DNA of 64,000 nt. Origin: a virus. Its lineage: Duplodnaviria; Caudoviricetes. The stretch lies in IMG/VR virus record IMGVR_UViG_3300042139_000023; one strand, written 5' to 3'. Of this stretch, positions 3,869 to 27,483 are shown one piece after another. Under the pieces are notes generated by a model. That model searched no databases and was not told where the DNA came from. It worked only from the letters and a program-made list of their open reading frames with translations. The translations under genes were made by a program, and so were the position numbers. The stretch's first letter is position 1; the number at the start of each line of letters is the position of its first letter.

Positions 3869-3884
3869 TAAGCTGGCCTAGGCC
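3869..3884 (+). promoter_or_regulatory. -10 box plus GGCCTAGGCC operator
   Basis: TG-extended TAAGCT (3869-3874) immediately followed by palindrome 3875-3884. Confidence 0.7.
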
Positions 3885-9678: not shown

Positions 9679-10109
9679 CTTCGCTCCTTCTGGAGGGTCT
9701 GGCGGGGCACTGAGTACTCAGGTACTGACGCGGCCCACAGGATGATGCCGACGTGGCTTATCGCGTACCACGCGGCGAGGGCGAACCCCCTGGGATAGTC
9801 GCCGGAGACCGCACTCCAGAGGAACGTGGAACCCCACACCAGGGGAGGGATCAGCGCGGTGAAGAACCCGAGCCAATCCCTCCCGATGCGGAGCCAGGCG
9901 CACCCGAAGGTGATGGATCCGCAGATGATCCAGACCGACGACCAGCACTGAACGCCGCCATGCCTGTTGAGGAGTCCCAGACCCACCGGGCTCGGGCCCG
10001 GATCGAGTGCGTACCCCAGGCCGAAGCAGACCTTGCCCAGGCCCAGGAGTACGAGTGCGGTACCACGGCGACCCAGCCTCTTGTACAGCCGCCGGATCGC
10101 CGTGGCCAT
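9675..10109 (-). CDS. four-TM membrane protein of lysis cassette
   Basis: RLGRRG.ALVLLG pattern and four hydrophobic segments. Confidence 0.65.
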   Translation of the reverse strand: MATAIRRLYKRLGRRGTALVLLGLGKVCFGLGYALDPGPSPVGLGLLNRHGGVQCWSSVWIICGSITFGCAWLRIGRDWLGFFTALIPPLVWGSTFLWSAVSGDYPRGFALAAWYAISHVGIILWAASVPEYSVPRQTLQKERR

Positions 10110-10486
10110 CAGGCCGCCCGGCTGAAGGCGGTGGGCGCCTTCTGCTCGATCGGTACGGAGACGACGGGCGCCGTGACCCTCTCACGCAGCCACAGCGCGA
10201 CCGCACTCTCGACGATCAGCATCCACAGGGCCTGCTGTTCGGCGCTCATCTCCAGCCCGAAGGCGAGGAACAGGGCCAGCGCACCCTGCGCCAGGTTGAT
10301 CACGGCCGCACCGACGGCGCCCGTCTTCAGGACGACCGCCTCGACGAGCGCGACCACCAGGCTGAGGAAAGCCATGATGGCGCCCTGCATCTCGTCGGAG
10401 ACGTCCAGGCCGTACGCCGACGCCAGCTTCAGCGCGACGGCGATGAAGGCCAGGATGTACACCGGCTCTCTGCCGAAGATCTTCAT
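10109..10486 (-). CDS. holin
   Basis: MKIFGREPV..four TMs..RERVTAPV, typical actinophage holin; directly downstream of endolysin. Confidence 0.75.
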   Translation of the reverse strand: MKIFGREPVYILAFIAVALKLASAYGLDVSDEMQGAIMAFLSLVVALVEAVVLKTGAVGAAVINLAQGALALFLAFGLEMSAEQQALWMLIVESAVALWLRERVTAPVVSVPIEQKAPTAFSRAA

Positions 10487-10503
10487 TGGGCCACCTTTCG
10501 TGG

Positions 10504-11604
10504 TCACGCGACGACGGTGAAACCGTGCTTCTCGCCGAGCCTAGTGAGACTGTCGTTCCCGGGTATGCCATCTGCTGCACCACCCGGAGCCGTACTGGCA
10601 CCCGGGTACAGCTTGAGCTGCCACTTGCGGTACGCCTCGACGGTCGTCGTGCCGAAGTGTCCGTCGAGGTAGGTCTTCGCCAGGAGCCCTTCGTCCACCA
10701 GAGCGGCTTCGACCGTCTTCGTTCCGGCGTACGTGACCGGCTGACCCGACGCCTTCGGGTCGGACTTGGCCGCCGCGACGAGCTGCGACAGGTCGACCTT
10801 CGGCTTCTGCGGCTTCGGCAGGCCGGATCCCTTGGGGACCGTCAGCTCCTGCCCAGGGAAGATCTCGTTCTTGTTCTTGATCTTGTCCTTGTTGGCCGCG
10901 TACAGGGCGTCGACCGTCACGCCCAGGGCCTTCGCGATACCGCTCAGCGTGTCGCCCGGCTTCACGGTGTACGTGGTGCCGGTGGACGGCGGCGGGGTCG
11001 GCTTGTCGGGCCCTGCACCCAGGCGCGAGCGCACGCGCGCACGCATGGAGTCCATGGTGAAGCCCAGCGGGTCCACCTTCCCGGGCTGCCACTCCTTGTG
11101 GCCGATGACCGAGAGCGGGCCCCAGTCGTGGTACCGGCAGATGGCCGCTGCGACCCGTTCGATGGCTTCGAGCTGAGCTGCGGGCCAGGGGTCCTTGCCG
11201 TTGCCCAGGTTCTCGCACTCGAAGCCGTAGAAGGCCCTGTTGCCGTCCACGGTGGCCTCGTTGTCGGCGGGCGCCGAGCGCTCGTCGATGACCGCCTGGA
11301 GTACGTCCGGGTCGCCGAGGCCAGCATGGTTGGCACGGCCGTAGCCAACCAAGTAGACCTTGCCGCTCTTGGCGATCATGCCGTGGCAGAGCGGACCGGG
11401 CAGGCCGGAGTAGCCGTTGTTCACGATGTTGACGGTGTTCTGGGTGCCACTGGTGACGGTGTGATGGATCATCACGCCATGCACGGCACCCCACGGTCCC
11501 TTGCTGTTGCGGTTGTGGGTCTCCCAGTTGCCGACTTCGACAACCTCGACGCCTTCCGCCTTCAGAGCGGCCAGAAATCTGGCTGCGCTCATCGGTGTAG
11601 ACAC
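10504..11604 (-). CDS. endolysin: N-acetylmuramoyl-L-alanine amidase, LysM, peptidoglycan-binding domain
   Basis: VMIHHT..GLPGPLCH..RANHAG..GFECEN..VIGHKEW..KVDP; LysM YTVKPGDTLSGIA..IFPGQEL; DGHFGTTTVEAYRKWQ; GGAGGGAGG RBS before GTG 11604. Confidence 0.92.
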   Translation of the reverse strand: MSTPMSAARFLAALKAEGVEVVEVGNWETHNRNSKGPWGAVHGVMIHHTVTSGTQNTVNIVNNGYSGLPGPLCHGMIAKSGKVYLVGYGRANHAGLGDPDVLQAVIDERSAPADNEATVDGNRAFYGFECENLGNGKDPWPAAQLEAIERVAAAICRYHDWGPLSVIGHKEWQPGKVDPLGFTMDSMRARVRSRLGAGPDKPTPPPSTGTTYTVKPGDTLSGIAKALGVTVDALYAANKDKIKNKNEIFPGQELTVPKGSGLPKPQKPKVDLSQLVAAAKSDPKASGQPVTYAGTKTVEAALVDEGLLAKTYLDGHFGTTTVEAYRKWQLKLYPGASTAPGGAADGIPGNDSLTRLGEKHGFTVVA

Positions 11605-11706
11605 GGGTTCCTCCCTCCGTGTGATGGTCATAGCTTCGCACGAATCTACGAAGAAGCGACTCGACAACTTCCCGCTTTCCTGCAATACTGTTTCTAGGAA
11701 AGGGGA

Positions 11707-13612: not shown

Positions 13613-14080
13613 ATGGACGCCCAATCGCAGCTAGAGGCAAGCAAGTTGGTCCTCAACTTGCCGTACTTCGAGCTGATCATCACCGGCTCCAGGGACTGGG
13701 CGGACCGCAGAGCGGTCCATCTGCCGCTGACCCGCCTGCTGAAACGCCACGGCCGCCTGCTCATCCGCAACGGAAAGAACAGGCGAGGCGCCGACAGGAT
13801 CGTCAGCGACTGGTCCTCCCACTTCATCGACGTGCTGGTCCTGGAGAAGCCGTACCTGCCCGACTGGGACAGCCACGGCAACTACGCGGGCAACCTCCGC
13901 AACCAGGACATGGTCGATGCCGGGGCCCAGGCCGTCATGGCGTGGGCCAACCCCTGCCGGAAGAACGGCCGCTGGTGCCCGCCGGGCGAACACCCCTCGC
14001 ACGGCACGGCCGACTGTGTCGAACGCGCCAGGAAGGCGAACATCCCCGTCTACTTCAGCCCCGAAGGGATGAGCTGGTAG
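13613..14080 (+). CDS. DUF2493/YspA-like SLOG-family protein
   Basis: LIITGSRDW..GADRI..PDW..AG..RNQDMVD.GA..SHGTADCVERARKANIPV. Confidence 0.8.
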   Translation: MDAQSQLEASKLVLNLPYFELIITGSRDWADRRAVHLPLTRLLKRHGRLLIRNGKNRRGADRIVSDWSSHFIDVLVLEKPYLPDWDSHGNYAGNLRNQDMVDAGAQAVMAWANPCRKNGRWCPPGEHPSHGTADCVERARKANIPVYFSPEGMSW

Positions 14081-14140: not shown

Positions 14141-14578
14141 ATGCAGAAGCTCACCACCGTCGCCCTGTCCACCGCGCTCGCGGGAGGGATGATGCTGACC
14201 GTGGCGCCCAGCGCCGATGCGGCCACCTCGATACGGGTGAAGGCCCTGAGTACCGCCGCCGCTCAGAAGGGGGACCCCTACAAGAGCGGCGCCGCTGGTC
14301 CGAACTACTTCGACTGCTCGGGCCTGACGTACTACTCGTTCAAGAAGAACGGCAGGACGCTCCCCCGCACGGCCCAGGCCCAGTACAACAAGTCCACGAA
14401 GATCCCCGCGAGCAAGCGGACCAAGGGTGACCTGGTCTTCTTCGGCGGCGCGAACTCGATCTACCACGTCGGCATCTACGCGGGCAGCGGCTACATCTGG
14501 CACTCCCCGAAGCCCGGCAAGAAGGTCGAGAAGGTCAAGCTGTGGACCTCTTCGGTCCGGTACGGGCGGTTCGTCTGA
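14141..14578 (+). CDS. secreted NlpC/P60 peptidoglycan endopeptidase
   Basis: Signal peptide; GDPY..GAAGPNYFDCSGL..GDLVFFG..HVGIYAG..WH. Confidence 0.9.
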   Translation: MQKLTTVALSTALAGGMMLTVAPSADAATSIRVKALSTAAAQKGDPYKSGAAGPNYFDCSGLTYYSFKKNGRTLPRTAQAQYNKSTKIPASKRTKGDLVFFGGANSIYHVGIYAGSGYIWHSPKPGKKVEKVKLWTSSVRYGRFV

Positions 14579-15926
14579 TGGCTGCCTTCCTGGTCACGGT
14601 GCGACTCGCCAAGAACCCCGAGCACAACCCGCGCGAGAAGAAGACCGGCCCGTGTCCGGTCAACGGAAAGCCCTGCACGGACGTGACGGGCGAGCACCAC
14701 ACCTTCCTGGTCGAGCTGGACGACGTGGACGATGCGGAGGCGGCACGCGAGATCTACACGGGCCTCTACCGGGTGACCCGCATCGAGACCGTATGACCGT
14801 GGGGATTCGCCTTGGATTCCAGGGCGAATCCCCGTAAGAACCCTCGGAATGGAGAGAACGTGAGCTGGACCGGAGGAACGGAGATCTTCGAATCGGTCTC
14901 CGAGGCGATCGAGCAGCGCGAGGAGGGCGAGATCTCCGGCAAGGAGCTGGTCGGCGCCCTCATCGAGGCGCTGAAGAAGCGGGGCTGGGACCCCACGGAC
15001 TATGGCGTCGGCGGCCTCGCCGAGGACTCCATCATCCGTGAGGCCATGGCCGAGCACGGCAACGTGGAGAAGTGCGACGGCGAGCACCCCGTGCAGCCGT
15101 GGCAGTGCGAGGAAAGCAAGGGCCACTACCCGGCCACGAAGCACGAGGACTACCAGGGAAACACCTGGTCGGAAGAGGAGGAAGCGTGAGCGAGATCCGC
15201 GCCCTGAACAGCCTGGGCGACATCGACAGGAGCGCCCGGCTCGCCGTGGAGAAGAGCATGACCCCGGGGTGCCACATCGTCATCGGCGGCTTCGGCCCGG
15301 TGAAGACGGGCTTCGGCGAGCGCATGACGGTACCGCTGGGGGACGCCCAGCTCGACGAGGACCCCGGCATCTTCGCCGAGCTGACCTACGAGCAGGCGCT
15401 GGACCTGAATGCGAAGCTGGCGGCGAAGCTGAACGAGCTGGCTTCCGAGCGCTGAGCAGCAGGAACGAGGAGAACGCGATGAGCATGTACGAGAAGATGC
15501 TCTGTACCGGCCCTTCGGGGTGCGGGCACCCCCGGCACGAGCACACCGGAACGCACGTGAAGGGCTCCCGGACGGCGTGCCGTCACAAGCTGGCGCAGGG
15601 CCGAGGGGTCTGCGCCTGCACCGAATTCAAGGAGGTTCGGGCTAATTCGTCCGTTTCGAAGCGGACTCCGGAAGCCGCTCGTGGCTGAGCGGCCGACCCC
15701 GCAGGAGGTCGAGACGAGCCGCCTGGCCAAGCTCCTGCTGGATCTGCACCGCTGCGAGCACGGCCGTCTGGAGGGGGACCCCTGTCTCTCGTGCGGCGGT
15801 CCGTCGGCGGGCAACCGCCTCATCCCACCAGGCACGCACATCGGGTACACCAGGTATGGGGACCGCATCGTGGTCCCCTCCTGGGAGGAGCACAACGACC
15901 CCAGAAAGTGGGTCCAAGGCCGCTGA
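14578..15926 (+). CDS. five small hypothetical ORFs (14578-14796, 14860-15189, 15186-15455, 15479-15688, 15681-15926), several Cys/His-rich
   Basis: Coupled starts and RBSs; motifs such as CPVNGKPC, CGHPRHEH..C..C.C, RCEHGR..CLSC. Confidence 0.55.
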
Positions 15927-16005
15927 AAAGTGGCCTGCAAGAACCAGCGAAAACGGCCCGCCGGAACGGCTCCGGCGGGCCACTCGGAGAGGAGATGAGG
16001 AGGTC

Positions 16006-17454
16006 ATGGCGATCCGCGTGAAGGTCCCGCAGGCAGCGGGAATCAGGCAGTCGATGGAGGTCCAGAACGGCTCCAAGGGCCTGGGCAGGATGTTCCGCAG
16101 GGGGCTGCACGGAAGCAAGAACTGGGTGCTGGAGCTGGACGAGAACGGCGAGCACCGCTCGGTGTGGGCCAAGGGTGGCCGGGCGTTCATCGTGCTCATC
16201 CCGGTCTGGGTGGTCCTGAGTGCGGCGACCGGCGGCCCGGAGCGGGGCGGCCACTCGACGAGCGTTCCGCAGGCGCTCGGCGCGGCTCTCCTTCTCACGG
16301 TGATCGGGCTGGCGGTGTTCTCCGCGCGTGAGCGGAAGCTGGGCCGCGAAGAGCCGTGGGTCACCGAGGGAGGCGACTCCAAGGGGATCACGGAAAGTGA
16401 GGATGGCGAGAACAAGACGCTCGTCGACCCCGCGCCGGAGAACTCCACGCAGATCCTCGAAAACCCGCAGGTCGAAGAGTCGGGTTCCGACGATGGGGCC
16501 GAACAGGAGATGGACGATTCGGAAGATTCGGTCGAAACCGAGCGATTCGAACAGCCGGATTTGCAGGAGCCGGTGCAGCAGGCCATTCCGTCCGAGGCGG
16601 AAACCCGCGTCATGACTGCGCCGGAGGCACCCACGACGGTGTTGCCGCAGGTCGTGCAGCAGGCCACTTCTGATGTCGCAGACCAGGACAAGTCGGGCCA
16701 GTCGTTCGAGGACATCGCCTCGGTGGCGAACGACTTTCGGACCGAAGCCTCGCAGCAGGCCAGTCAGGAACCGGCATATTCCCTGGTCAAGGACTCTGCG
16801 CCCGACATGCAGGAGCCCGTGCAGCAGGCCACTCCCCAGTGGACGAAGCTGGACGTTTCCGGCGTCACCGAGGGTGATAACGGACTCATCCCTGACGAGC
16901 CCACCACGCCCTTGCGGACCACCGTGCAGACGGCCTTGCACCAGAACCCCGATGCAAGCGAATCCGTGCAGGTCAGCCTGGAGAAGGAGCCCGTGCAGCA
17001 ACCCTTGCAGGGGGAGTTGCAGGTCCAGTTCGCCCAGGCTGGGCCCTACCCGGCCGGGGAAGAGCCGGAGCACGAGGACTGGTGGGTGGTGGCACCCGAC
17101 ATCGAGCCCGCAGCGGAGGCGGAGGAAGTCGCCCTGGAGCCCGTTCAGGAAGATGTCGCGCCCGAGCCCGTCCCCGTCTTCGCGGAGGCCGCAGAAGCGG
17201 AGCAGGAGGCGTCTCAGGTTCCGGTCGGCCGTCACCCGATGGTCGTGCTCACCTACCTCGCCTCCCAGGCCCCGAAGTCCGGCTTCACGCCCGAGGAGAA
17301 GGAGGCGGCTCGCACGGCTGTCATCACGTGGCTGCACGGGGAGATCCAGCAGGGACACCTGAACCGCGCCGAAGGCGCTCGTGTTCTCGGCGTGGACGCC
17401 TCCACGGTCGGTCGCTGGCTGAGCGACCTGAACGACGACCCCTGGGCCGGGTGA
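16006..17454 (+). CDS. membrane protein with acidic repeat-rich linker and C-terminal HTH
   Basis: Two TMs (FIVLIPVWVVL, LGAALLLTVIGLAVF), EPVQQA-type repeats, LNRAEGARVLGVDASTVGRWL. Confidence 0.7.
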   Translation: MAIRVKVPQAAGIRQSMEVQNGSKGLGRMFRRGLHGSKNWVLELDENGEHRSVWAKGGRAFIVLIPVWVVLSAATGGPERGGHSTSVPQALGAALLLTVIGLAVFSARERKLGREEPWVTEGGDSKGITESEDGENKTLVDPAPENSTQILENPQVEESGSDDGAEQEMDDSEDSVETERFEQPDLQEPVQQAIPSEAETRVMTAPEAPTTVLPQVVQQATSDVADQDKSGQSFEDIASVANDFRTEASQQASQEPAYSLVKDSAPDMQEPVQQATPQWTKLDVSGVTEGDNGLIPDEPTTPLRTTVQTALHQNPDASESVQVSLEKEPVQQPLQGELQVQFAQAGPYPAGEEPEHEDWWVVAPDIEPAAEAEEVALEPVQEDVAPEPVPVFAEAAEAEQEASQVPVGRHPMVVLTYLASQAPKSGFTPEEKEAARTAVITWLHGEIQQGHLNRAEGARVLGVDASTVGRWLSDLNDDPWAG

Positions 17455-17479
17455 CCAGGCCACACGAAATGGCCTACTC

Positions 17480-17514
17480 GAAGGGCCGCCAGACGATGTT
17501 CTGGCGGCCCTTCG
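17480..17514 (+). terminator. hairpin
   Basis: GAAGGGCCGCCAGA-CGATGT-TCTGGCGGCCCTTC. Confidence 0.6.
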
Positions 17515-17557
17515 CCGTACGCTGATGCCCGACACGGATCACTGGAAAGGTGATGGC

Positions 17558-17989
17558 ATGAGCGAGAACGCCTACGACCGCAGCGCGCTGGGCCACGAGG
17601 CAGGAAAGCTGCTGGACGCCCTCCTGAAGCATGTGAACGAGATCGGGCGGGCCCAGGTGGCAACATCCGCCCTCCTGAAGGACAGCGGACTGACCCAGGG
17701 TGCCCTGGTGCGCGCCAGGGCGGAACTCACCCGGAACGGGCTGCTGCGAACGGAGCCGGGCTTCTCCTCTACCGGGCTGCGCGGGGCGAACGTCTACGTG
17801 CTGAACATGACCGCGATCGAGCCCCCTTCCAAGGAGATTCTGGAAGACGAAACCGGACGAATCGAGGCAGACGATCCCGATGGTGCTGGTCACCAGGTTT
17901 CCGGAGAGGTTCCTGCCCCTTCCGGGCGGCATCGCAGCGAGCGGAAGGGCTTCCTTCGTGGCCTCTTCCGTGGGTCTCGTTCTTCCTGA
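17558..17989 (+). CDS. winged-helix DNA-binding protein
   Basis: LLKDSGLTQGALVRARAELTRNGLLR..G.RGANVYVL wing. Confidence 0.65.
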   Translation: MSENAYDRSALGHEAGKLLDALLKHVNEIGRAQVATSALLKDSGLTQGALVRARAELTRNGLLRTEPGFSSTGLRGANVYVLNMTAIEPPSKEILEDETGRIEADDPDGAGHQVSGEVPAPSGRHRSERKGFLRGLFRGSRSS

Positions 17990-18157
17990 AGCACGGAAGG
18001 ACTGCCGCCCTGTCGGAAGAAGCCGAAGAAGAGGTGGTTGTTCTCCACTCGAATCGGACGAATGAGGACACGACGGGGCGGCAGTTCGTGGCACGCTTCT
18101 CGAATCGCAGTGAATTCGGACAGAACGGACGACTTCCAGGATCCTGCCCTGGTTCGC

Positions 18158-18187
18158 TTGACACGGCCTAGGCCACGCTGGCACAGT
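18158..18187 (+). promoter_or_regulatory. promoter with GGCCTAGGCC operator in the spacer
   Basis: Consensus TTGACA (18158-18163), palindrome 18165-18174, CACAGT at 18-nt spacing. Confidence 0.7.
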
Positions 18188-18252
18188 CATGCGTAACGCC
18201 CCCAAGCGAGGTTTCAGAAACCGGGGGTTTTCGGAAAGGGAGAAACCCAGAC

Positions 18253-19413
18253 ATGGACAAGACGGAAAACAACGAGAAGGTCGCGAAGGTCGACATCGAC
18301 GAGGACGGTCCGAAGCGTTTCTCCGTTCTGGTTCTGATGGCGAGCATCCTCTCGATCGGCTCCCTCGCCTGGAGTACCTGGTCCTTCATCGACCTGTACA
18401 AGGTCGACGCGCTCACCATCGACAAGCTGGGCGGGCTCAGCCTGATCTCCCTCTCGGCCGCCGCAACGATGGACGTCGTCTGGAGCGCGACGATGGTGGC
18501 CCAGTACCAGGGCCAGAAGCTGATGGGGAAGCTGCCGAAGGTCAAGAAGTCCTTCGACTTCCTCCCGCTCATCGGGTGGATCGAGGCCCTGTTCGTCGCC
18601 GGACTGCTCGGCTACCACGGAACGACGATCGGCGGCGGCGCCGCAGGGTTCGCGGCGGTCCTCCCGGTCTTCACGAAGCTCACGTGGACGATGGCCCTGA
18701 ACGGCCTGAAGGACCCGAGCGAACTGACCGACGAGGAGAAGGCCGAGATGGCGGCCGAGAAGCGGAAGTCGAAGCTCACCCGGGCCAAGGCCGACGCAAC
18801 CCAGGAGCAGCATGCGGCCGACATGATCCTGAAGAACCGCGAGCACGAGGCGGCCCTGGCCGAGCAGCGGCGCCTGGCGGCCATCGAGCACGAGAAGGTC
18901 CAGGCCGAGATCGAGCGCAAGAAGCTGGAGCAGCAGGCCCAGTTCGAGCTGGAGAAGGCCCGGCTGGAGGGTGAGGCCGAGACCAAGCTGATGCGTCAGC
19001 AGCTCAACGCGCGGCTCCAGATCGAGACCCTGCGCAGCCAGCAGGGCATCAGCCTGGAGCGCATGGACGCCGAGCAGGAGCTGCGCCTGCGGGCCCCGCT
19101 GGACCTCGGCTTCAACGTCATCCAGGGGCAGGTCTCCCGGCCGCAGCTCGCGAAGAGCAACGTCTCGTTCGAGGAGGAGGACGACGCGGAGGGCATCAGC
19201 CTGGACGGCCTGAACCTGACCGACGCCGAGCGCCGGAAGGTGAACCTGGCGGCCCGCTACTACGCCGCCGACGCGGCCGAGGGCGGCATCACCAAGGCCG
19301 CCTTCGCGAAGGCCAACCAGACGGGCGCCCCCCGGGTGACCGAGGCGACCACCGCCTTCCCGCTGGAGTGGTTCGTCGAGAACGGTCTCGCGAGCTGGAT
19401 GAACCAGGGCTGA
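18253..19413 (+). CDS. SpdB-like plasmid-spreading membrane protein (four TMs plus coiled coil)
   Basis: SLAWSTWSFIDL..AAATMDVVWSATMVAQ..PLIGW..LLGYHG..LPVFTKLTWTMAL..DP resembles Streptomyces SpdB-family proteins; terminator GAAGCCCCCG/CGGGGGCTTC 19431-19456. Confidence 0.55.
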   Translation: MDKTENNEKVAKVDIDEDGPKRFSVLVLMASILSIGSLAWSTWSFIDLYKVDALTIDKLGGLSLISLSAAATMDVVWSATMVAQYQGQKLMGKLPKVKKSFDFLPLIGWIEALFVAGLLGYHGTTIGGGAAGFAAVLPVFTKLTWTMALNGLKDPSELTDEEKAEMAAEKRKSKLTRAKADATQEQHAADMILKNREHEAALAEQRRLAAIEHEKVQAEIERKKLEQQAQFELEKARLEGEAETKLMRQQLNARLQIETLRSQQGISLERMDAEQELRLRAPLDLGFNVIQGQVSRPQLAKSNVSFEEEDDAEGISLDGLNLTDAERRKVNLAARYYAADAAEGGITKAAFAKANQTGAPRVTEATTAFPLEWFVENGLASWMNQG

Positions 19414-19512
19414 CAAGCCCGCACGACAGAGAAGCCCCCGCCCCGGCGGGGGCTTCCTGTTTTCCCCAACTTGCCTGTATTCTGGTTATGTTGAAGTGGA
19501 GAGGAGAATGAC

Positions 19513-21401
19513 ATGGCGTGGCGAATCGAGGCATCCGGAGGAACCGGATCCGCCAATTACGTTGTGATCCAGCCGATGATGGACGACGACCCGGAGAGCG
19601 AAGTCCGGCACGCGCTCATCACCATCTCGCCGAAGGGCGGTCGCGAGCACCCGACGATTCCGATGCTTCCGCCGGGCGCCCTGTACCGGGATCGGCTCGG
19701 TATGGCGTATCGCATTCAGGAGGCAACCATCGTCGAGACAGGAACCGACGACGGTGAACACTCCATGTGGCGCTACGAGTACCTGGTCGCCTACAGCGCG
19801 ACCCTTCCGCTCCGGCCCGTCTCATGATGGAGAAGGTCGTCACCTGGGCCATCGCGAAGGCGGTCGAAGATGTTGACGACAGCGTGACCACGGCTGCCCT
19901 GATGGGCGCCGCACTGGATACCGCCACCTTCTCGGCGATCGGCGTACCGGCGACCGGGGCTGTGATCGCAGGGGCCGCCACGGGCGTGGGCCTGAACGTG
20001 GTACGCAAGCTGAGGAAGGGAGAAGGGGAATGACCGACTGGTGGAACACGTCCGCGCCGCGACAGGAGGGCGAGCCGGTTCGCGCTGAACCCGCTATCGG
20101 GTGGGACCCGGAACCCATGCCGTCGATGCCCGCCTCTCCGCCCGAGCCTCCGGCCCAGCAGGAGGAGCCGGAAGCGCAGAAGCCGGATCGCCGCAAGAGC
20201 CTTCTCCTCGGTGCGGCCGGTGCTGCCGCCGTGGGGGTCCTGGTTTTCACCGTCATGCCGCACGACGGCTCGACTCCGGCCGACGTTCCCGGTGTGTCCG
20301 CATCATCGTCCGTCGGGGACTTCCCCCCTGCGGCCGGTGGCGGGCCCTCGGAAGGTGCACAGGACCGCGCTGAAGAATCCCGGGCACCCGCCCCGCAGAA
20401 GCCGAAGGTGGTCACCCTCTCTGCCACACCCAGTGGCTCCGGCAGCGTCGGCGCGATCGTGAAGCTGACGGTCGTGAACAACACCGACGAGGCCGTGGTC
20501 GTCATGTCGTCGATGGTGAAGGGTGACGGCCGCCCGGCGGTCATCGGAGAGGGCACGCTGGCGCCCGGCTCCCGGCGCGTAGAGCCCGGAGAGACGGCGA
20601 CCGGAACCGTGGAGTTCGCCACGAAGAAGGCGCCCGCCCAGGTGGCTCTCGTCGACCTCAGCGGGAACGTGGTGGCGGCCAGTGGCTGAACCCCTGCTGC
20701 ACCGCCTTCCGTCGACCGGGAAGTACGACAAGAAGTACCAGGTGCACGGTCACGACCACCTGATCGTCGAGGCGTACTACTCCGACGCCGAAGACAGCAA
20801 GCCGGAGTTCGGGTGCTGGTGGGTGATCGACGCCCGCTTCACCGCCCTCGACCGGTACCGTCGGCAGATCGTCTTCTCCTCCACGTACCTCTCCGACATC
20901 CGGAGCTGGCTGAAGGCTGGAGGGGCGAGCCTGTGGGACCCCGAGAAGAGGAAGGCCGACAAGGACTGGAAGCCGATTCCCGAAGGGTGGTCCCCCGACG
21001 ACAGCCGACTGGAGGCGAAGCGTCGTACACCCTTCAGGCCGTTCGGCGAGAAGGGGTCACGGGCACACAGGTCGGCGCGCAGGCCCGAGGAGCCGGAGCC
21101 CAGCGACTACCCGCTCTACCCAAGGGGCCTGACGGGCAAGAAGTACGCCGTCGTCCCCGGGTGGGTCACCTCCGTCAACGACGGTCAGCGGCACTGGATC
21201 GGATTCGGTGCACTCACCTGGCTGTACGGGGTTAATCCGGCCGAGTGCATCAAGGTCGACGACGAGACCGAACGTGGCTGGAACGACGACCTGCGGGCAC
21301 ATCTGATCTGGCTGTATCCGCAACGCAGGCACGAGGACTACGAATCGATGAAGGAGGAGCTGGCCAGGGGCGAGGACGCCTTCAAGCTGATCGAGCCCTG
21401 A
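19513..21401 (+). CDS. four hypothetical ORFs (19513-19827, 19824-20033, 20030-20689 membrane-anchored with Ig-like C-terminus, 20682-21401)
   Basis: Coupled overlaps; TM SLLLGAAGAAAVGVLVFTVM in 20030-20689. Confidence 0.6.
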
Positions 21402-21410
21402 GCATGCGAA

Positions 21411-21440
21411 AGCCCCCGTCGCACCGTTGCGACGGGGGCT
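21411..21440. terminator. bidirectional terminator
   Basis: AGCCCCCGTCGCA-CCGT-TGCGACGGGGGCT between convergent genes. Confidence 0.7.
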
Positions 21441-21461
21441 CTGCACATCCGCATGGGGTCC

Positions 21462-22196
21462 TCACAGGGGCACGTGGAACGAGACCGGCCTGTTGCCCTC
21501 GCAGACCTTCACGGCGACCTCGACGACCTTGCCGTTGGCCAGGAGGACCCGACGCGCCGTCTGCGTGACGATCGCGTACGCGCCCTTCAGTTCCAGCAGC
21601 TCCCGCTCCCGGTCCGTCGCCAGACGCGACGTGATGACGGGGATCAGGTCCTTCTGCCGGGAGCCCATGCGTTCGGCCGCCAGCTCCCGCGAACCGCGCG
21701 GGGTGGACTCGGCCATCGCCAGCTCGGGCGTCACGGCCGTCACCTCGGGCGGGTAGTACGAGTGTCCGGTGGCGACCGGCTTGCCGTCGATCTTGTTCAG
21801 GCGCTCCCGGTACACGACCCCCTCGCCGGGCTCGACGCCCAGCGCGGAAGCGATGCTGGCCGGGCACGGCACCGTCTCCACCCGCAGGATCTCCGAGGTC
21901 TCTCGGGCGCCCAGCGCCTTGCCGCTCGCCGCGTAGTTCCCGACGCGGTCCTGGACCGTCGCCGTGCGTCCCGAGATGTCCGCCACGACCGGCGGCCGGT
22001 TGCCGCTGGACGGCTCCAGGACCCCTTCCGCCGTCAGCAGCTCCACGACCTTGTCGATGGTGACGCGCGACGTCTTGTGGGTCTTGGCGAGCCTGCGGCG
22101 CGACTCCAGCGGGGTACCCGGCGCCAGATCACCAGAGGTGATCCTGGATCGGTAATGTGCCGCAATGGCACGGTACTTGGGAATCTGCTCGCTCAC
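21462..22196 (-). CDS. GntR/HutC-family regulator with UTRA domain (KorA/TraR/KorSA-like)
   Basis: PKYRAIA..ITSGDLAPG.PLESRRRLA...SRVTI.K....L..EGVL, C-terminal UTRA-like domain; GAGGAG RBS, GTG 22196. Confidence 0.9.
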   Translation of the reverse strand: MSEQIPKYRAIAAHYRSRITSGDLAPGTPLESRRRLAKTHKTSRVTIDKVVELLTAEGVLEPSSGNRPPVVADISGRTATVQDRVGNYAASGKALGARETSEILRVETVPCPASIASALGVEPGEGVVYRERLNKIDGKPVATGHSYYPPEVTAVTPELAMAESTPRGSRELAAERMGSRQKDLIPVITSRLATDRERELLELKGAYAIVTQTARRVLLANGKVVEVAVKVCEGNRPVSFHVPL

Positions 22197-22215
22197 TTTT
22201 TCTCCTCGCGTTCGC

Positions 22216-22244
22216 TTGTGGCCTAGGCCGTATTGTGTCATGCT
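22216..22244. promoter_or_regulatory. divergent promoter region with GGCCTAGGCC operator
   Basis: Palindrome 22220-22229, 24 nt upstream of the GntR start; TTGTGG-17-CATGCT on +. Confidence 0.65.
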
Positions 22245-22283
22245 GGACTCCACAACGCCAGCAGGGACCGAAGAGAGGGCGAC

Positions 22284-22448
22284 ATGGAAGGTAACGGGGA
22301 GGTTCAGGAGCCGGTTGTGCCGCAACCTCAGCACGTGCCGGAGGCTTCTCTGGGGCAGCTTTCTGACTTCGCTGCCAACCAGGATATCGCCCGATTGGAG
22401 GCAACCGTAGAGGCCAACATCGGACTAGCTTCCGACGGAAAGCCGTAA
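22284..22448 (+). CDS. small hypothetical protein
   Basis: GAGGG RBS, ATG 22284. Confidence 0.45.
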   Translation: MEGNGEVQEPVVPQPQHVPEASLGQLSDFAANQDIARLEATVEANIGLASDGKP

Positions 22449-22463
22449 CGCGGAAGGAGAAAC

Positions 22464-23426
22464 GTGGCGACGAAGGCAGCCATTCCGCCGAAGCCGAAGA
22501 CGGCCCCCACCGTGCACCTCAAGGGCCAGAAGCGGAAGCCGCCACGGACCCTGAAGGGCGACCTCAAGGCACTGAAGGGGAAGCTCGGTTCGGCCACCAC
22601 TCGGTGGACCGAGAGTCAGGGCAAGGCGGAAGAGAAGAAGGAGAAGGTACGCCAGGAGGCCGAGAAGATCCTGGCCCCCGTCAAGGAAAAGGCCGCAGAG
22701 GAGAAGAAGCTCGCGGCCGAAGTGATGAAGCCCGTTCAGGCGGCTGCCGCCGCCATCAAGAACGGGTTGGATCCGGCCAACGGAAAGACCCGGCCGTACG
22801 TCACTTCGTTCATGATCTCCTCGGTGATGTCGTGGGCTGTCGGACCGCAGATTCTGACCGCTCTGTACGAGCGAATCCGCTTCGGCACCTCGACCACCGG
22901 ATGGGGAATCCTGAACGGCCCTGGCAGGTGGTTCAGGGACACGATCGGCATGGCGTACGAGTCGGACCGGCTCGGCAGCCTGATCTGGGCAGCGATCATG
23001 GGGCTCACCCCCATGATCCTGATGTTCACCCGGAACCAGGTCGCCGGATACCTGGCCCAGAGCACGTACCGGGGGCGGATGGTCGCCTTCAGCATCAAGT
23101 GGCTGACCCGTTCGGCCTGGCTGGTTCCGGTCCTGTTCTTCGTGGGGGTCTCGTACCCCGACGAGGTGACGGCGATCTTCGGTTCGCCGTGGACCTTCCA
23201 GATGTGGCAGTTCTGGGTCGCCGGTCTGTTCTGCATGGCGTTCTACGCGACCATGTGGGTCTTCGACCGGATCGAACGGCTCAACCGCGAGCGGTCGGCC
23301 ATGTCGGAGGAGGAGCGCGAGAAGTCCCAGAGCATGGGGCCGGGCATCTTCCACGCCGTACTCATGATCCCGCTGGCGTCGATCGTCACGGGGATCCTGC
23401 TCTACGCACCGGGCGCCGCCTGGTGA
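22464..23426 (+). CDS. multi-TM membrane protein with N-terminal basic coiled coil (transfer-region-like)
   Basis: Lys/Ala-rich N-terminus, five to six hydrophobic helices. Confidence 0.65.
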   Translation: MATKAAIPPKPKTAPTVHLKGQKRKPPRTLKGDLKALKGKLGSATTRWTESQGKAEEKKEKVRQEAEKILAPVKEKAAEEKKLAAEVMKPVQAAAAAIKNGLDPANGKTRPYVTSFMISSVMSWAVGPQILTALYERIRFGTSTTGWGILNGPGRWFRDTIGMAYESDRLGSLIWAAIMGLTPMILMFTRNQVAGYLAQSTYRGRMVAFSIKWLTRSAWLVPVLFFVGVSYPDEVTAIFGSPWTFQMWQFWVAGLFCMAFYATMWVFDRIERLNRERSAMSEEEREKSQSMGPGIFHAVLMIPLASIVTGILLYAPGAAW

Positions 23427-23651
23427 TGCACAAGGGCCTCCGCTGCCGTGTGGCAGCCCAGCTACCGCTGGAAGCCGGTTCGCATCCGGCCGGAGGTACG
23501 AAGCGGACGAACGAGCCGCTTGGAAAGGGGACGAGTCGTGTTCCAGAAGGACGACGACCTCGACGGGCTGCCGGTACTGAAGCCCGCCGGTCCCGGCCGG
23601 TGAGTCTGTGGGGCCGCTGGAGGGCGGCCCCACAGGGAAGGTGAGGGAAAA

Positions 23652-24230
23652 GTGATTCTGGCACTCACGCAGCAGCAGCAGATCGAGGTTCCGGAGAATT
23701 CGTGGATCGGTCACACCACGATGGCAGGCTTCGGAATCATCCTGCTGGTGCTCTCGTTCCTCTGCATCAAGGGGAACAAGAAGGGTCAGCAGATGTTCCT
23801 CTGGGGCGGGCTGACCAAGGCGCTGATGACCAAGGCCGTGCAGCAGCCGACCAGCCGCATGATGACGAAGGTCCACGGAGGTCCGAGCGAAGGGTTCGAC
23901 TGGCGGTCCGCAATGACATTCCTCGTGGGAATGTGGGCCATGACGTCGATCGTCAGCTCGACCGGTGGGTTCGTCGTCGACCTGGTCGACTGGTTCCAGG
24001 GTCTGGTCATGGCGCTGGCCGACTGGCCGGTCCTGTCCGACATCGGAGCCGGAGGCATCTGCCTCTTCCTCGGGTTCCTCGCGATGCGGAACAAGGATGA
24101 CGACAAGCAGGATCTGATGTACGGCGCCATCTGCGGGTTCTTCTTCCCGCTCGGCGGCGGCACCTGGGCCGAGATCACACTCCAGATCGGCAACTGGATC
24201 CCGCAGCTCATGCAGAGCCCGTTCCACTGA
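23652..24230 (+). CDS. multi-TM membrane protein (transfer-region-like)
   Basis: Four to five hydrophobic helices; terminator AACGGCCGGGCCC/GGGTCCGGCCGTT follows. Confidence 0.65.
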   Translation: MILALTQQQQIEVPENSWIGHTTMAGFGIILLVLSFLCIKGNKKGQQMFLWGGLTKALMTKAVQQPTSRMMTKVHGGPSEGFDWRSAMTFLVGMWAMTSIVSSTGGFVVDLVDWFQGLVMALADWPVLSDIGAGGICLFLGFLAMRNKDDDKQDLMYGAICGFFFPLGGGTWAEITLQIGNWIPQLMQSPFH

Positions 24231-24303
24231 GGTGGGCGGTTCCAACGGCCGGGCCCTTCGCGGGTCCGGCCGTTCGGCTTTTCAACTCCAGTACAGGTTC
24301 ACC

Positions 24304-24333
24304 TTGTTGGCTGGCCTAGGTCAATGTTAGAGT
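24304..24333 (+). promoter_or_regulatory. promoter with GGCCTAGGTC operator variant
   Basis: TTGTTG-18-TAGAGT (24328-24333), operator variant 24313-24322 in the spacer. Confidence 0.6.
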
Positions 24334-24355
24334 GGAGCCCGGAGAAGGGAGGAAC

Positions 24356-24994
24356 GTGATGCGCAGGGCAGGCGGAGTATTCGTCGGCGTGTTTCTGGCA
24401 GTTGGGGCAGTTCAGGCCGTCACCGGTTTCATTCCGGCGGTCCCGTCTGCCGCGTCCGTCGCGGCGCCTCCGAAGCAGGAGGCCACCGGGGACTACAAGT
24501 TCACGGGCACCTCTGCCCCGATCCGGCCCGGCTCGGTCCCGAAGAAGCGCTGGGAAGAGCTGATCAACAAGTGGGGCAACAAGTGCAAGACGTTGACCCC
24601 CGCCCTCCTGGCGGCCCAGCTCGATCAGGAGAGCATGGGATTCAAGCCTGAAGTCATCGACGGACGACTGGACTCCCCGGCCTCCGCCAAGGGCATGGCC
24701 CAGTTCATCGACGGCACGTGGGCCACCGAGGGGATCGACGCAAACGGGGACGGCAAGCGCAACAAGTACGACCCCGAGGACGCCATCCCCTCGGCCGCGA
24801 CGCTGGACTGCAAGCTCGCGAACGGCCTGAAGGACATACCTGGCCCCACCTGGAAGAACATGCTCGCCGGATACAACGCGGGCGGCTTCCGGGTGAAGCA
24901 GTACAACGGCGTCCCGCCGTGCTCGTTCGCCAGGTGCGAGACCTACAACTACGTGAAGTTCATCGAGCGGAAGACGAGGAAGTACGAGCAGTGA
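24356..24994 (+). CDS. secreted lytic transglycosylase (SLT)
   Basis: LLAAQLDQES.GF..SPASAKGMAQFIDGTW..DGDG......DPEDAI..LAGYNAG. Confidence 0.9.
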   Translation: MMRRAGGVFVGVFLAVGAVQAVTGFIPAVPSAASVAAPPKQEATGDYKFTGTSAPIRPGSVPKKRWEELINKWGNKCKTLTPALLAAQLDQESMGFKPEVIDGRLDSPASAKGMAQFIDGTWATEGIDANGDGKRNKYDPEDAIPSAATLDCKLANGLKDIPGPTWKNMLAGYNAGGFRVKQYNGVPPCSFARCETYNYVKFIERKTRKYEQ

Positions 24995-25590
24995 ACCGGA
25001 CTCAGCGAGCGGCCCTGGCGGTCGCCTCCGTGGCGCTGCTCGTGCCCGTCACGTCATCCTGTGCCGCGCTCAACGCGGCGCCCATCTCGAACGCCACGGC
25101 GAACCCCAACCCGGAGATCGAGAAGATCAACTGGTACTCGCCCGAGCAGCGCGCCAAGGAGGCGAAGCGACAGGAGCGGGACACCAAGGTCTCCAGTTCC
25201 CGGTCGGGCGACGCGGCGGCCGTGGCCATCGCGTACGCCCGCACGAAGATCGGAGTTCCCTACCTCTGGGGCGGCACCGGCACCAGCGCCCAGGGCGGTC
25301 GCTTCGACTGCTCCGGCCTGACGCAGGCCGCGTACGCCAAGGCGGGGATCAGGATCCCTCGGGTCGCGAACGACCAGTACAACACGACCAGCAATCATCC
25401 ATCCTGGGATGAACTGGAGCCGGGTGACCTGGTCTTCTTCGGCCAGAAGGGGAATTCGCGCTCGATTCATCACGTCGGCATCTACATCGGTGGCGGCAAG
25501 ATGCTGCACGCGCCACGGACCGGAACGAAGATCCGCGTCAACGACGTGCACTACATGAACGACTACTTCGGAGCGACGAGGGTGGCCTGA
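24991..25590 (+). CDS. NlpC/P60 lipoprotein
   Basis: Lipobox TSS-C; IGVPYLWGG..FDCSGL..PGDLVFFG..HHVGIYIG..LHAP. Confidence 0.9.
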   Translation: MNRTQRAALAVASVALLVPVTSSCAALNAAPISNATANPNPEIEKINWYSPEQRAKEAKRQERDTKVSSSRSGDAAAVAIAYARTKIGVPYLWGGTGTSAQGGRFDCSGLTQAAYAKAGIRIPRVANDQYNTTSNHPSWDELEPGDLVFFGQKGNSRSIHHVGIYIGGGKMLHAPRTGTKIRVNDVHYMNDYFGATRVA

Positions 25591-26773
25591 TGGCTGAACA
25601 CACGGTGCGCGTATGGCGCAGGACAAGGCCCCTCACGGGTGACCCGACCCGGGTCATCGGCCTGGAGCGGGACGAGATCACCCTTGAGGCGCCGAGCTTG
25701 AAGTCGGCCCTGGAGCAGGTGGTCGACGCCGAGTACAAGGAGGGCGGCAAGCAGCTCCGGGTGTACGCCCAGATCGAGCGGCCCGAAGGAGGTCACCTCG
25801 GGATCGGCGATTACACCCTCTGCGAGCTGGCTTTCGCGGAAGACGAGAAGCGCCGGGCGGAGCAGTCCGGCGACATCGAGAAGTAACGGAAACGGAGAAA
25901 CACGTGGAATCCAGTCTCGGAACGCCGGACGACATGCTGCGCCAGTCGATGAAGCAGCTCGGCATCGACCGTGAGACGGCCATCTCCCTGGCCGTGAAAG
26001 GCTTCGAGGCGGCCCTGCGGGTCGAGGGCGAGGTGACCGAGGAGAAGGTGGACCGCAAGCTGGCCGAACTCTTCGTCGCCGAGAGCCGCAACCGGTCCCC
26101 CTGGTTCGTGACGCTGATGCAGGCGCACTACCGCAAGAACCTCCCCGCCTGGGAGAAGCTGCACGACGACGCGGTGGAGCGCGGCCAGGACCCGGCGACG
26201 AAGATGTCCATCACCGAGAGCGTGATCATGGAGATGGCGCAGGAACGCGTCGAGCTGGTGAAGCTCGCCAAGCAGGGCAAGTCGATCGAGGAGATCACTG
26301 AGGCGGCCTTCGCCTTCGACGACGCGCGGCCCGACGGCGAGCTGTACCTGCTCCTCGCGCGACAGATGGGCTGACGGAGAACCCCGGACGGGCGGCCGAT
26401 GTGAACGGCCGCCCGTCGTCACATCTCGGAAGGGAAGAAGGGCATGACGAAGAACGCCAAGCGAGCGGGCGTCATCACGATCGAGGTCGAGCTGCTGAAG
26501 CCGCTCAGCCGGATGCGGAAGGTGGCTCTGGAGCTGGCCTGGGAGGACATGCTGGACCTCCCGCTGTCGACCGACAAGCTCCAGATCGACCGCATGGAGA
26601 TCAACCTGACGCTCGGCCCGGCCGACGACGGAACGATCCTCGACGCGCCGAACTCGCTTCAGGACTTCACCTGGCAGGGCACCTACGACAGCGGCGAGTG
26701 GGTGGCCGCCGAGACCTTCATCGCCAACGCCCGGCACGACCGTCGAGTGCTGAACGTCAAGGCGATCCGGTGA
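25590..26773 (+). CDS. three hypothetical ORFs (25590-25886, 25904-26374, 26444-26773)
   Basis: RBSs, GC3 bias; hairpin 26387-26417. Confidence 0.6.
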
Positions 26774-27483
26774 AGGGGTCGGTGCACGCGGCGATCGGAG
26801 CCTCGGCACCGGCAGGGCTCGTGCTCACTCAGCACGTCAGCATCCTTCAGGGTGTGGTGATGGCGGCGGTCTCGGCGGGTTTCTCCCTGATGCCCGACCT
26901 GGACCACCCCAACGCCTGCGCCACGAAGGCCCTGGGCAAGCCCGTCCACAGGGTCGTCCACACCCTGTGCAAGGCGGTCGTGAAGGGCACGGCACTGGGC
27001 CGCGATCGAAGCTACCTGACCTTCCGGAAGGCCCGTGGCCAGGACCCCTACCACCGGACCCTGACGCATACCTTGCTCGTCTCGGTGGCGATGGGTGCCC
27101 TGGCGTACATCCTGGCGATGGCTTCGCCCATCGCCTGCGGGGCCGTGGCCGCGCTCGGGGTCTTCACGCTCTGGCCGTTGTACCGGAAGACCATCGGCCT
27201 GGTCGTCCTCGGTGCCGCCGTTGCGGCCGTCGGGTCAGTGATCTACCTGGATCCCTGGTTGATGGCACTGGCCGTGACCGGCGGATACGCAAGTCACGTG
27301 GTGGCCGACGGCTGCACGACGGCCGGGGTTCCGGCGTTCTGGCCGCTGACCATCCAGGGCAAGCGCTGGTGGAACATCCGGCTCCTTGGAGGATCCGTCT
27401 CTTCGGGGTCGGCCGCAGAGAAGGGACCGGCGATCGGGGTGGCAATGGCCTCCAACGCACTTCTGGTCCTGCTCAGCATGTAG
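26770..27483 (+). CDS. membrane-bound metal-dependent hydrolase (YbcI/YdjM-like)
   Basis: VHAAIG..SLMPDLDHP..HRTLTHT..YASHVVADGCT..GVP.FWP. Confidence 0.85.
   Translation: MKGSVHAAIGASAPAGLVLTQHVSILQGVVMAAVSAGFSLMPDLDHPNACATKALGKPVHRVVHTLCKAVVKGTALGRDRSYLTFRKARGQDPYHRTLTHTLLVSVAMGALAYILAMASPIACGAVAALGVFTLWPLYRKTIGLVVLGAAVAAVGSVIYLDPWLMALAVTGGYASHVVADGCTTAGVPAFWPLTIQGKRWWNIRLLGGSVSSGSAAEKGPAIGVAMASNALLVLLSM

Follow-up and report, generated by a model that had tools for sequence, protein, structure and literature searches.

The 64,000-nucleotide stretch of DNA analyzed here (hereafter the window; bases 80453-144452, minus strand, of the 168,372-bp IMG/VR record IMGVR_UViG_3300042139_000023, or G000:C1, which is 89% complete) comes from a tailed virus and contains, between positions 16006 and 25590, a set of genes for membrane proteins, a GntR-type regulator and exported cell wall hydrolases. 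An initial annotation had interpreted this set as a conjugation or spreading module inside a complete siphophage, and the element as a possibly conjugative phage-plasmid. The genes were called by third-codon-position G+C (GC3) frame analysis, since the genome is 66% G+C and its lists of open reading frames (ORFs) are crowded, and these calls agree with the annotation of the Streptomyces phage Frankenweenie; every gene that had been listed for the region was recovered at its coordinates in this way. The analysis leads to the tentative view, held at slightly less than even confidence, that the region is a conserved envelope cassette which was built in part from genes for transfer and spread of Streptomyces plasmids. 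The genes that bear most directly on this proposal are given below in window positions, except that coordinates preceded by G000:C1 are those of the whole record.

18253-19413, plus strand: g114, SpdB-like protein for which four transmembrane (TM) helices and a ~120-residue coiled coil are predicted, with a small helical domain at the C-terminus that resembles a helix-turn-helix (HTH)
21462-22196, minus strand: g109, GntR/HutC-type regulator, KorA/TraR-like (GntR, E 4e-7; UTRA, E 7.6e-16), divergent from g108-g107
22317-22448, plus strand: g108, first gene of the operon that diverges from GntR, an ORF of 43 codons that is also annotated in Frankenweenie and EhyElimayoE
22464-23426, plus strand: g107, polytopic membrane protein whose N-terminus is basic and whose model shows a long helix at residues 30-101 and a multi-helix membrane domain
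23652-24230, plus strand: g105, small polytopic membrane protein, found after g107 in every genomic context that was read
24359-24994, plus strand: g104, secreted SLT lytic transglycosylase (Pfam SLT, E 4.7e-9) with a signal-like N-terminus and a QES motif
24991-25590, plus strand: g103, NlpC/P60 lipoprotein (Pfam NLPC_P60, E 1.9e-28) with a lipobox-like VTSSC, a DCSG motif that contains the Cys, and His motifs
G000:C1:145863-147164, same strand as the cassette: Tra-like FtsK-type ATPase of 433 amino acids, 1.4-2.7 kb upstream of window base 1

The region from 16000 to 25600 aligns over its full length with Frankenweenie at 90% DNA identity and with the phages Satis, Kradal, EhyElimayoE, Quantum, JustBecause and Kela at 77-79%, and by these sequence matches the element is a virulent, nearly jumbo Streptomyces siphophage of cluster BM with a genome of ~190 kb. 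Phages of this cluster have prolate heads of ~285-330 nm in length and genomes of 184-200 kb. Their linear genomes have defined ends with direct terminal repeats of ~1 kb, they are reported to lack integrase and repressor, and they form plaques, with S. lividans or S. scabiei as isolation hosts (PMC6687918, PMC10652959); for Frankenweenie itself, integrase and repressor are reported to be absent (PMC10652959). As the initial annotation stated, tail, lysis and replisome functions are also encoded in the window, including a tape measure protein, an endolysin, a holin, a primase, a DNA polymerase and helicases; the endolysin and holin form a pair of the classical type that lies on the opposite strand, apart from the cassette. 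At least 16 metagenome runs of rhizosphere or soil, which stem from many studies, contain near-identical DNA.

The assignment of g114 to the SpdB family, which had been proposed from the letters alone, is upheld by several comparisons. The Pfam family SpdB_N (PF27080) is recorded for eight g114 ortholog clusters at 54-78% identity, in precomputed tables that describe these orthologs and not g114 itself, and the more distant ortholog in contig L012 (described below) also carries PF27080, with E at most 1e-5. The nearest Atlas clusters (scores 0.87-0.88, 183-188 shared features) are actinobacterial proteins called ‘putative protein SpdB’ that combine SpdB_N with HTH_SpdB_C (PF27079), while a word-based search retrieved BM-like phage proteins only. 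When 72,556 plasmids were searched by tblastn, g114 matched Streptomyces plasmids only, eight of them ~85-94 kb in size and four of them 240-323-kb plasmids of S. zaomyceticus. Its match to WP_330479968, encoded on the plasmid NZ_CP108975, has an E value of 2e-16 in that search (7e-30 against two fetched loci alone) and an hhalign probability of 99.7%, and the gene for this plasmid protein lies between GntR and FtsK/TraB genes, in an operon that is divergent from GntR and upstream of an 869-amino acid FtsK/TraB protein, with kilB nearby. Among 50,697 phage records, homologs of g114 that are detectable by BLAST occur in seven BM phages only, and a tblastn search of phages with pIJ101 SpdB found none. 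In the AlphaFold2 (AF2) model the helices of g114 span residues 22-48, 64-85, 104-126, 129-151, 160-278 and 324-376; the four-TM part has low predicted local distance difference test (pLDDT) values, a crude hydropathy scan flagged only two of the four TM helices, and a structure search with the model was dominated by the coiled coil and uninformative. Together, these family assignments and the predicted helices identify g114 as a putative SpdB-type four-TM protein. SpdB2 is described as an oligomer with four TM helices that forms pores, binds both DNA and peptidoglycan and interacts with TraB, and spread proteins of this kind are needed for pocks and spreading (Thoma et al., 2015; PMC4447253).

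The statement that the key TraB/FtsK translocase is missing from the window was literally correct, but an FtsK_SpoIIIE search of the whole record located one ORF for such a protein just upstream of window base 1. This 433-amino acid ATPase scores 20-21 bits against Pfam FtsK_SpoIIIE (cut-off 24), matches the PHROG FtsK/SpoIIIE-like family at E 7.8e-42, and is 31% identical to residues 187-526 of pIJ101 Tra (E 2e-45), with a near-identical Walker A motif. Its best plasmid matches are in 7-10-kb Streptomyces plasmids, including pIJ101, at up to 38% identity, and it has no sequence-level relation to the long TraB of NZ_CP108975, a pZL12-like plasmid. Walker motifs A and B are invariant in 22 Tra-like homologs, down to 41% identity. 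A putative winged HTH (wHTH) at the C-terminus, residues 382-425, matches HTH_IclR at E 0.0012 with 19 bits, short of the cut-off of 22; pIJ101 Tra likewise has an ATPase followed by a C-terminal wHTH, with MarR_2 at the same relative position. In a maximum-likelihood tree (support 98/99 to 100/99, with a root that is only approximate), the phage proteins of ~430 amino acids form a monophyletic clade that is nested among Streptomyces proteins of 560-700 amino acids encoded on 4-12-kb contigs, a topology which fits capture of a tra gene from a small plasmid. The protein is thus predicted to be a plasmid-derived motor of the Tra type which has kept intact Walker motifs and has no membrane anchor.

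The corresponding gene 156 (‘FtsK-like DNA translocase’) is the sole FtsK-type gene in the complete genome of Frankenweenie, and related Tra-like genes are found in other Streptomyces phages, among them TP1604, YDN12 and Mischief19. The Tra-like proteins of JustBecause and Kela (H47, H48) are 45.6% identical to this one, as against ~79% DNA identity in the cassette, suggesting allele replacement at the tra-like locus. A predicted complex of the Tra-like protein with g114 received a score of 0.00, which counts neither for nor against an interaction.

The initial annotation also pointed to the Kor/TraR control of spread in Streptomyces plasmids, and g109 fits a repressor of this kind in having a GntR wHTH domain plus a UTRA domain, in being divergent from a membrane protein operon, and in having a palindrome in the intergenic region. 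The protein is 39% identical to the spd-adjacent GntR of NZ_CP108975, and hhalign aligns it with that protein at 100% and with pIJ101 KorA at 99%; any HutC-type GntR scores high against KorA in hhalign, so the position of g109 weighs more than the score. The GntR gene is kept in the same place and orientation in each of the four relatives L008, L009, L011 and L012. Candidate operators in and around the cassette are as follows.

18165-18174, unstranded: candidate GntR operator 79 bp upstream of g114, a GGCCTAGGCC palindrome that immediately follows a TTGACA-like hexamer
22220-22229, unstranded: exact copy of GGCCTAGGCC between the divergent genes, 24 bp upstream of the start codon of GntR
24313-24322, unstranded: GGCCTAGGTC, with one mismatch to the palindrome GGCCTAGGCC, 37 bp upstream of the SLT gene

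GGCCTAGGCC resembles operators of HutC-type regulators such as the DasR box. Its exact copies number six in the record, against 0.7 expected, with those in the window at 3875, 13587, 18165 and 22220; when one mismatch is allowed and the CTAG core is retained there are ~17 sites, including those at 24313, 37623 and 43417 in the window. Nearly all of the ~17 sites precede a plus-strand gene by 10-80 bp and often adjoin a TTGAC-like hexamer that comes just before them, and one site of this type is found 13 bp past the stop codon of the tra-like gene. The palindrome looks like an operator or promoter element that is used genome-wide, and it possibly defines the GntR regulon.

Hidden relationships were sought by profile comparison (hhalign) of 16 phage proteins with 32 annotated proteins of pIJ101 and a pZL12-like plasmid, and it was g109 and g114 that found counterparts in this set. 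The proposed relation to Streptomyces transfer and spread therefore stands for g114, g109 and the Tra-like motor, and was not detected for any other protein of the cassette. Scans with Pfam, NCBIfam and PHROGs of g116, g115, g113, g112, g111, g110, g107 and g105 gave nothing above noise; the SpdA, SpdB and KilB proteins of pIJ101 likewise lack a Pfam family in the copy used, so the silence of Pfam on cassette proteins is of little information. DUF2637 (PF10935) was absent.

For g107, which has an AF2 model of mean pLDDT 72.6, no fold match was found in the PDB or Atlas, no plasmid homolog by tblastn, and no usable Atlas feature match; its family is small, with 40 clusters among 1.84 billion representatives. 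By hydropathy, g107, g105, g111 and g116 are the several membrane proteins that had been noticed in the region. The secreted SLT protein and the NlpC/P60 lipoprotein of the operon divergent from GntR were both confirmed by Pfam, and the latter (g103) matches the NCBIfam families DIP1281, RipC and RipB, and resembles RipA/RipB/RipC. Two further genes for wall-directed or membrane hydrolases flank the cassette in the window.

14141-14578, plus strand: g122, small secreted NlpC/P60 endopeptidase (Pfam NLPC_P60, E 6.6e-24) with a Sec-type signal that ends in APSADA
26770-27483, plus strand: YdjM-family membrane hydrolase (Pfam YdjM, E 1.4e-16), downstream of the cassette

The first of these, which is conserved in Frankenweenie, EhyElimayoE and L008, is a third exported wall hydrolase near the cassette.

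Comparison with distant relatives shows that the cassette is conserved as a unit. The core order (SpdB-like gene, GntR on the opposite strand, g107, g105, SLT and YdjM) is kept in L009 and L012 at 24-30% identity. In L009, a 104-kb contig with ~28% identity, a gene for a 491-amino acid g114 homolog is followed by GntR on the opposite strand, g107, g105, SLT and YdjM; in L012, an 80-kb contig, the order is YAcAr, a 339-amino acid SpdB_N protein, GntR on the opposite strand, a 464-amino acid g107-like protein, a g105-like protein, SLT, Peptidase_M23 and YdjM. L008, a 253-kb contig of a Streptomyces isolate assembly, has g116-like and g114-like genes, two GntR genes, g107, g105 and SLT, to which tblastn adds an NlpC/P60 ORF after SLT, and L011 has GntR, g107, g105 and SLT. 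Thus, the neighbors of g107 in every context read are GntR, a g105-like gene and SLT; g105 orthologs are found in L008, L009, L011 and L012, in each of which SLT comes after the g105-like gene, and a YdjM family gene is located downstream of the cassette in L008, L009 and L012. Beside SLT, no endopeptidase gene was found in L009 and L011. The Peptidase_M23 gene of L012, which follows SLT and a 71-amino acid ORF, occupies the position of NlpC/P60, and the presence of an endopeptidase of another family in an otherwise conserved order suggests selection for a pair of transglycosylase and endopeptidase that works together with the membrane proteins of the cassette.

The plasmid relatives of g114 and g109 raise the question of whether the element is itself maintained as a conjugative plasmid that travels in virions, through mating and by spreading; the initial annotation raised this possibility, and such movement is reported for pZL12. 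Its closest plasmid relatives for g114 and GntR are indeed in ~85-94-kb Streptomyces plasmids; NZ_CP108975 encodes a terminase, a capsid protein and a tape measure protein in addition to its GntR-spd-TraB operon; and pZL12 is described as a plasmid-phage with a tra gene, to judge from the passages that cite it in PMC3583192 and PMC4487206. Two assemblies of Streptomyces isolates also contain BM-like contigs, a hint of persistence in cultures. However, neither ParA (two families) nor ParB was found in the 89% complete record or in the complete genome of Frankenweenie, whereas pZL12 and pSLE1 do carry ParA/ParB (PMC4487206). A tyrosine integrase was not found in the 168,372-bp record, a search that did not extend to serine recombinases, and VirB4- or VirD4-like ATPases (AAA_10, T4SS-DNA_transf), for which a search had been proposed along with one for ParA, are likewise missing from the 89% of the genome that the record holds. 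The only FtsK-type protein lacks a membrane part, and no plasmid record matches the region 16000-25600 at the DNA level. Together with the defined ends, the plaques and the reported lack of integrase and repressor in cluster BM (PMC6687918, PMC10652959), these findings make plasmid maintenance highly improbable and run counter to the terms ‘phage-plasmid’ and ‘conjugative’; the element is a phage with borrowed plasmid parts, not a plasmid.

The two isolate assemblies contain BM-like genomes as large contigs, L010 (GCA_024295805.1, 185,382 bp), which matches the size of a whole BM phage genome, and L008 (GCA_042741515.1, 252,977 bp). These contigs may stem from phage that contaminated the cultures, or they may reflect a carrier state or pseudolysogeny. 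At window 10109-11685, the holin and the endolysin in its C-terminal part are 36-39% identical to products of genes of NZ_CP108975 (locus L007, 25466-26227), and two tail-protein segments are also common to this phage and NZ_CP108975, indicating mosaic exchange between both phage lineages.

The hyphae of Streptomyces are divided into compartments, and diffusion through soil should be poor for very large virions. Against this background, the combination of plasmid-type genes and wall enzymes suggests that phage DNA might pass between hyphal compartments without virus particles, and the reading that we favor, if with some hesitation and at a little under an even chance, is that a virulent BM phage carries a plasmid-derived module for crossing hyphal cross-walls. 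In such a process, the membrane proteins would assemble at the cross-walls of an infected hypha into a channel that might include the SpdB-like protein, g107 and g105, and the exported hydrolases would locally thin the peptidoglycan of the septum. The soluble motor of the Tra type could then dock on the membrane complex and pump replicated, double-stranded phage DNA into neighboring compartments, so that infection would spread inside the mycelium without virions. GntR would time or limit expression of these genes, as Kor/TraR does for the otherwise lethal tra/spd genes, and would probably act through the promoter-like GGCCTAGGCC palindromes.

Several observations weigh against a cross-wall transfer module. 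At the level of homology, the comparison of g114 with pIJ101 SpdB itself is not significant (E 0.12, probability 0.5%, profile against sequence), and in hhalign g116, g115, g113-g110, g107 and g105 have no detectable similarity to Tra or Spd proteins of pIJ101 or pZL12-like plasmids. The motor is also an awkward part of the scheme: the Tra-like protein starts just past the position of the Tra TM helix (156-174) and contains no hydrophobic segment, the ORF upstream of its gene does not encode a membrane protein either, and the gene lies ~17 kb from the cassette. In other Streptomyces phages that have related Tra-like genes, BLAST finds no homolog of g114, nor of the two plasmid SpdB proteins tested, so motor and cassette may work independently. 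No clt-like array of short repeats, another feature for which a search had been proposed, was found in the cassette, which contains only coding repeats and terminator hairpins, or near the tra-like gene. The genome-wide distribution of the palindrome makes the GntR protein look like a general or temporal regulator of the phage and not like a Kor protein specific to the module. Finally, passage of phage DNA between compartments is a step that we infer from sequence comparisons.

The search for clt combined a repeat search in the cassette with a genome-wide scan for clusters of 8-mers, and the latter did reveal arrays elsewhere in the genome. Six copies of GCTCCCGC (reverse complement GCGGGAGC) fall within 220 bp at G000:C1 ~51,840-52,060, 92.4 kb downstream of window base 1, at the edge of a 30-kb zone in which CGGGAG is strongly strand-polar (52 versus 3 per 8 kb). 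It is conceivable that this array is a target of the wHTH of the Tra-like protein, akin to clt or to the FtsK-orienting polar sequences (KOPS). Five copies of TCCTCCGG, spaced by 54-66 bp, form an iteron-like array at G000:C1 ~17,090-17,330, outside the window. No Tra-like gene was found in the stretch of L012 that was examined; at 17000-17338, ~7 kb downstream of its cassette, this contig encodes a stand-alone FtsK gamma domain of 112 amino acids (E 1.2e-14), which may offer another route to engage FtsK-type translocation. A more elaborate form of cross-wall transfer, in which a phage-specific channel of the SpdB-like protein, g107, g105 and the exported hydrolases is joined by the anchor-less Tra motor to pump the 190-kb genome between compartments as naked DNA, with CGGGAG words or 8-mer arrays as a KOPS- or clt-like guide for the motor wHTH, appears unlikely.

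The chief rival is a cassette that acts in envelope remodeling or as an aid to lysis, with no transfer of DNA. Its membrane proteins, the presumably pore-forming SpdB-like protein included, and the exported transglycosylase and endopeptidases would breach cross-walls or weaken the thick hyphal wall, pooling compartments or freeing the very large virions, and the Tra-like ATPase would serve in other DNA metabolism. This role is consistent with the three exported hydrolases in or flanking the cassette, with the unlinked, anchor-less motor, with the lack of Spd or Tra homology in most proteins of the cassette, and with the holin-like behavior of SpdB2, which in E. coli gave T7 lysozyme access to the wall (PMC4447253). 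Among the distant relatives read, moreover, an endopeptidase gene stands beside SLT only in L012, and there it is of another family (M23). On the other hand, a classical endolysin-holin pair is already present, and hydrolases that carry export signals can reach the wall without a holin. In its predicted structure the SpdB-type protein has retained an HTH-like domain at the C-terminus and a long coiled coil, which would suit DNA binding more than lysis, and the plasmid-derived DNA pump has been kept with its motifs intact. A wall-remodeling or lysis-accessory role is judged to be rather unlikely, if still worth serious attention.

Phage exclusion genes commonly take the form of membrane protein cassettes that a repressor controls. 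One could thus imagine that the SpdB-like protein, the membrane proteins and the Tra-like ATPase block superinfection, or jam the transfer of resident plasmids or integrative and conjugative elements of actinomycetes (AICEs), so that host DNA or rivals cannot escape from the infected compartment; a truncated plasmid motor without an anchor might act as a dominant-negative form in this setting. Yet the ATPase motifs are fully conserved, as they would not have to be in a decoy, an exclusion system is not expected to export peptidoglycan hydrolases, and conservation of the cassette in lineages at ~25% identity argues for a core function, all of which leaves exclusion or interference improbable.

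The remainder of the region contains the following genes and elements.

16006-17454, plus strand: g116, membrane protein with two hydrophobic segments (53-71, 87-105), an acidic linker that carries repeats, and a weak HTH at the C-terminus
17558-17989, plus strand: g115, small soluble protein with a weak PHROG match to a replication-initiator O-like family (E 0.008)
19513-21401, plus strand: g113, g112, g111 and g110, a group of four conserved genes located between g114 and GntR
23427-23651, plus strand: tRNA-like element and an ORF of ~21 codons in the conserved gap between g107 and g105, with a T-arm-like GGTTCGCATCC

The membrane protein with a C-terminal HTH that the initial annotation described is g116, in which the membrane segments are clear and the HTH is weak (HTH_28 at 447-476, E 0.021, under the Pfam cut-off). 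Its long linker (window 16550-17010) carries four to five peptide repeats of the EPVQQA type, which are visible as DNA repeats of 14-36 nt (D1, D2 and D4). No relation of g116 to g114 was detected, and an Atlas feature search gave no usable match. g115 is conserved in BM phages and L008, g111 has one TM helix plus an extracytoplasmic domain, g110 is absent from EhyElimayoE, and g113-g110 are undetectable in L009. Upstream of the cassette, both here (window 13613-14080) and in L008 and L012, there is a gene for a YAcAr/SLOG protein that is called ‘DprA-like’ in BM phages.

The gap between g107 and g105 was aligned with Frankenweenie and EhyElimayoE. The annotation of Frankenweenie calls a tRNA-Sec(tca) here, the anticodon region is nine bases shorter in the window, and neither ARAGORN nor Rfam calls anything at 23427-23651. 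The ORF of ~21 codons is conserved and has a ribosome-binding site, and a terminator hairpin lies at 23606-23635. Hairpins are found 3′ of g116, g114, g110 (at 21411-21440, between this gene and the GntR gene) and g107, suggesting that there are several transcription units and not one operon. A consensus promoter scan returned no sites, and an Rfam scan of 15500-26500 gave a single match at chance level. Parts of g122, g116, g114, g111, g110, g104 and g103 are covered by contigs from two soil RNA libraries that match the window at 97-100% identity; the lack of cover over g107-g105 in X17 and X19 is not evidence of silence. These contigs are a weak hint of transcription of the cassette, with carry-over of DNA as another possible source.

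Whichever activity it has, the cassette yields two membrane protein families without known relatives, which travel with an SpdB-type protein and wall hydrolases in every context read. If phage DNA does cross septa, infection would proceed in part without virus particles, as it does when plant viruses move through plasmodesmata, and readings of plaque growth, burst size and host containment would change. Streptomyces development is known to help contain phage infection at plaque edges (PMC10117723). The suggestion that SpdB2 homologs might spread actinophage DNA (Thoma et al., 2015; PMC4447253) would also become testable in the cultured phages Frankenweenie, Satis and JustBecause.

The transfer regions of Streptomyces plasmids, korA-tra-spdA-spdB-kilB in pIJ101 and traR-spdB3-spd79-spdB2-traB in pSVH1 (Thoma et al., 2015; PMC4447253), share with the phage an SpdB-type four-TM protein, a GntR regulator divergent from a membrane protein operon, and an FtsK-type motor for double-stranded DNA, with a putative C-terminal wHTH in the phage protein, whose descent from plasmid Tra is traceable in sequence. 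They differ in that the replicon here is a virulent phage of 190 kb, in which the motor is without a membrane segment and is encoded 17 kb away, no clt was found, and SpdA, KilB and other Spd proteins have no counterparts. In turn, the phage adds a pair of novel membrane proteins as well as the exported SLT and NlpC/P60 enzymes, which were not found in the two plasmid regions compared.

A closer likeness is found in pZL12, pSLE1 and NZ_CP108975, where genes of tailed phages and genes of the Tra/Spd type are present on one replicon; this group includes the nearest plasmid homologs of g114 and GntR, and NZ_CP108975 has a few lysis and tail genes in common with the phage. Elements of the pZL12 type are ~90-kb circular plasmids with ParA/ParB (PMC4487206), and NZ_CP108975 encodes a full-length, 869-amino acid TraB and an integrase. 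The BM phage has none of these, and its motor is of the pIJ101 type, with no sequence-level relation to the TraB of NZ_CP108975.

In the conjugation systems of Gram-positive bacteria, the proteins TraG of pIP501 and PrgK of pCF10 combine SLT with CHAP or NlpC/P60-like domains. The phage cassette is similar to such VirB1-type hydrolases in placing muramidase-type and endopeptidase activities next to membrane channel proteins, but it encodes them as two separate exported proteins, lacks VirB4, VirD4 and a relaxase, and is accompanied by a pump of the FtsK/TraB type.

FtsK-like genes are routinely annotated in Streptomyces phages, and SpdB2 homologs have been noted in the temperate actinophages phiC31 and VWB (PMC4447253, refs 34, 35), so the idea of plasmid spread genes in phages of Streptomyces is shared with those cases. 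In the literature covered, which is incomplete, no paper was found that describes such a cassette for cluster BM. What appears to be new is that SpdB-like and Tra-like proteins occur together in a virulent, near-jumbo phage, where the cassette joins the SpdB-type protein to two orphan membrane families and exported wall hydrolases, and where a plasmid Tra protein has apparently been trimmed to a soluble motor.

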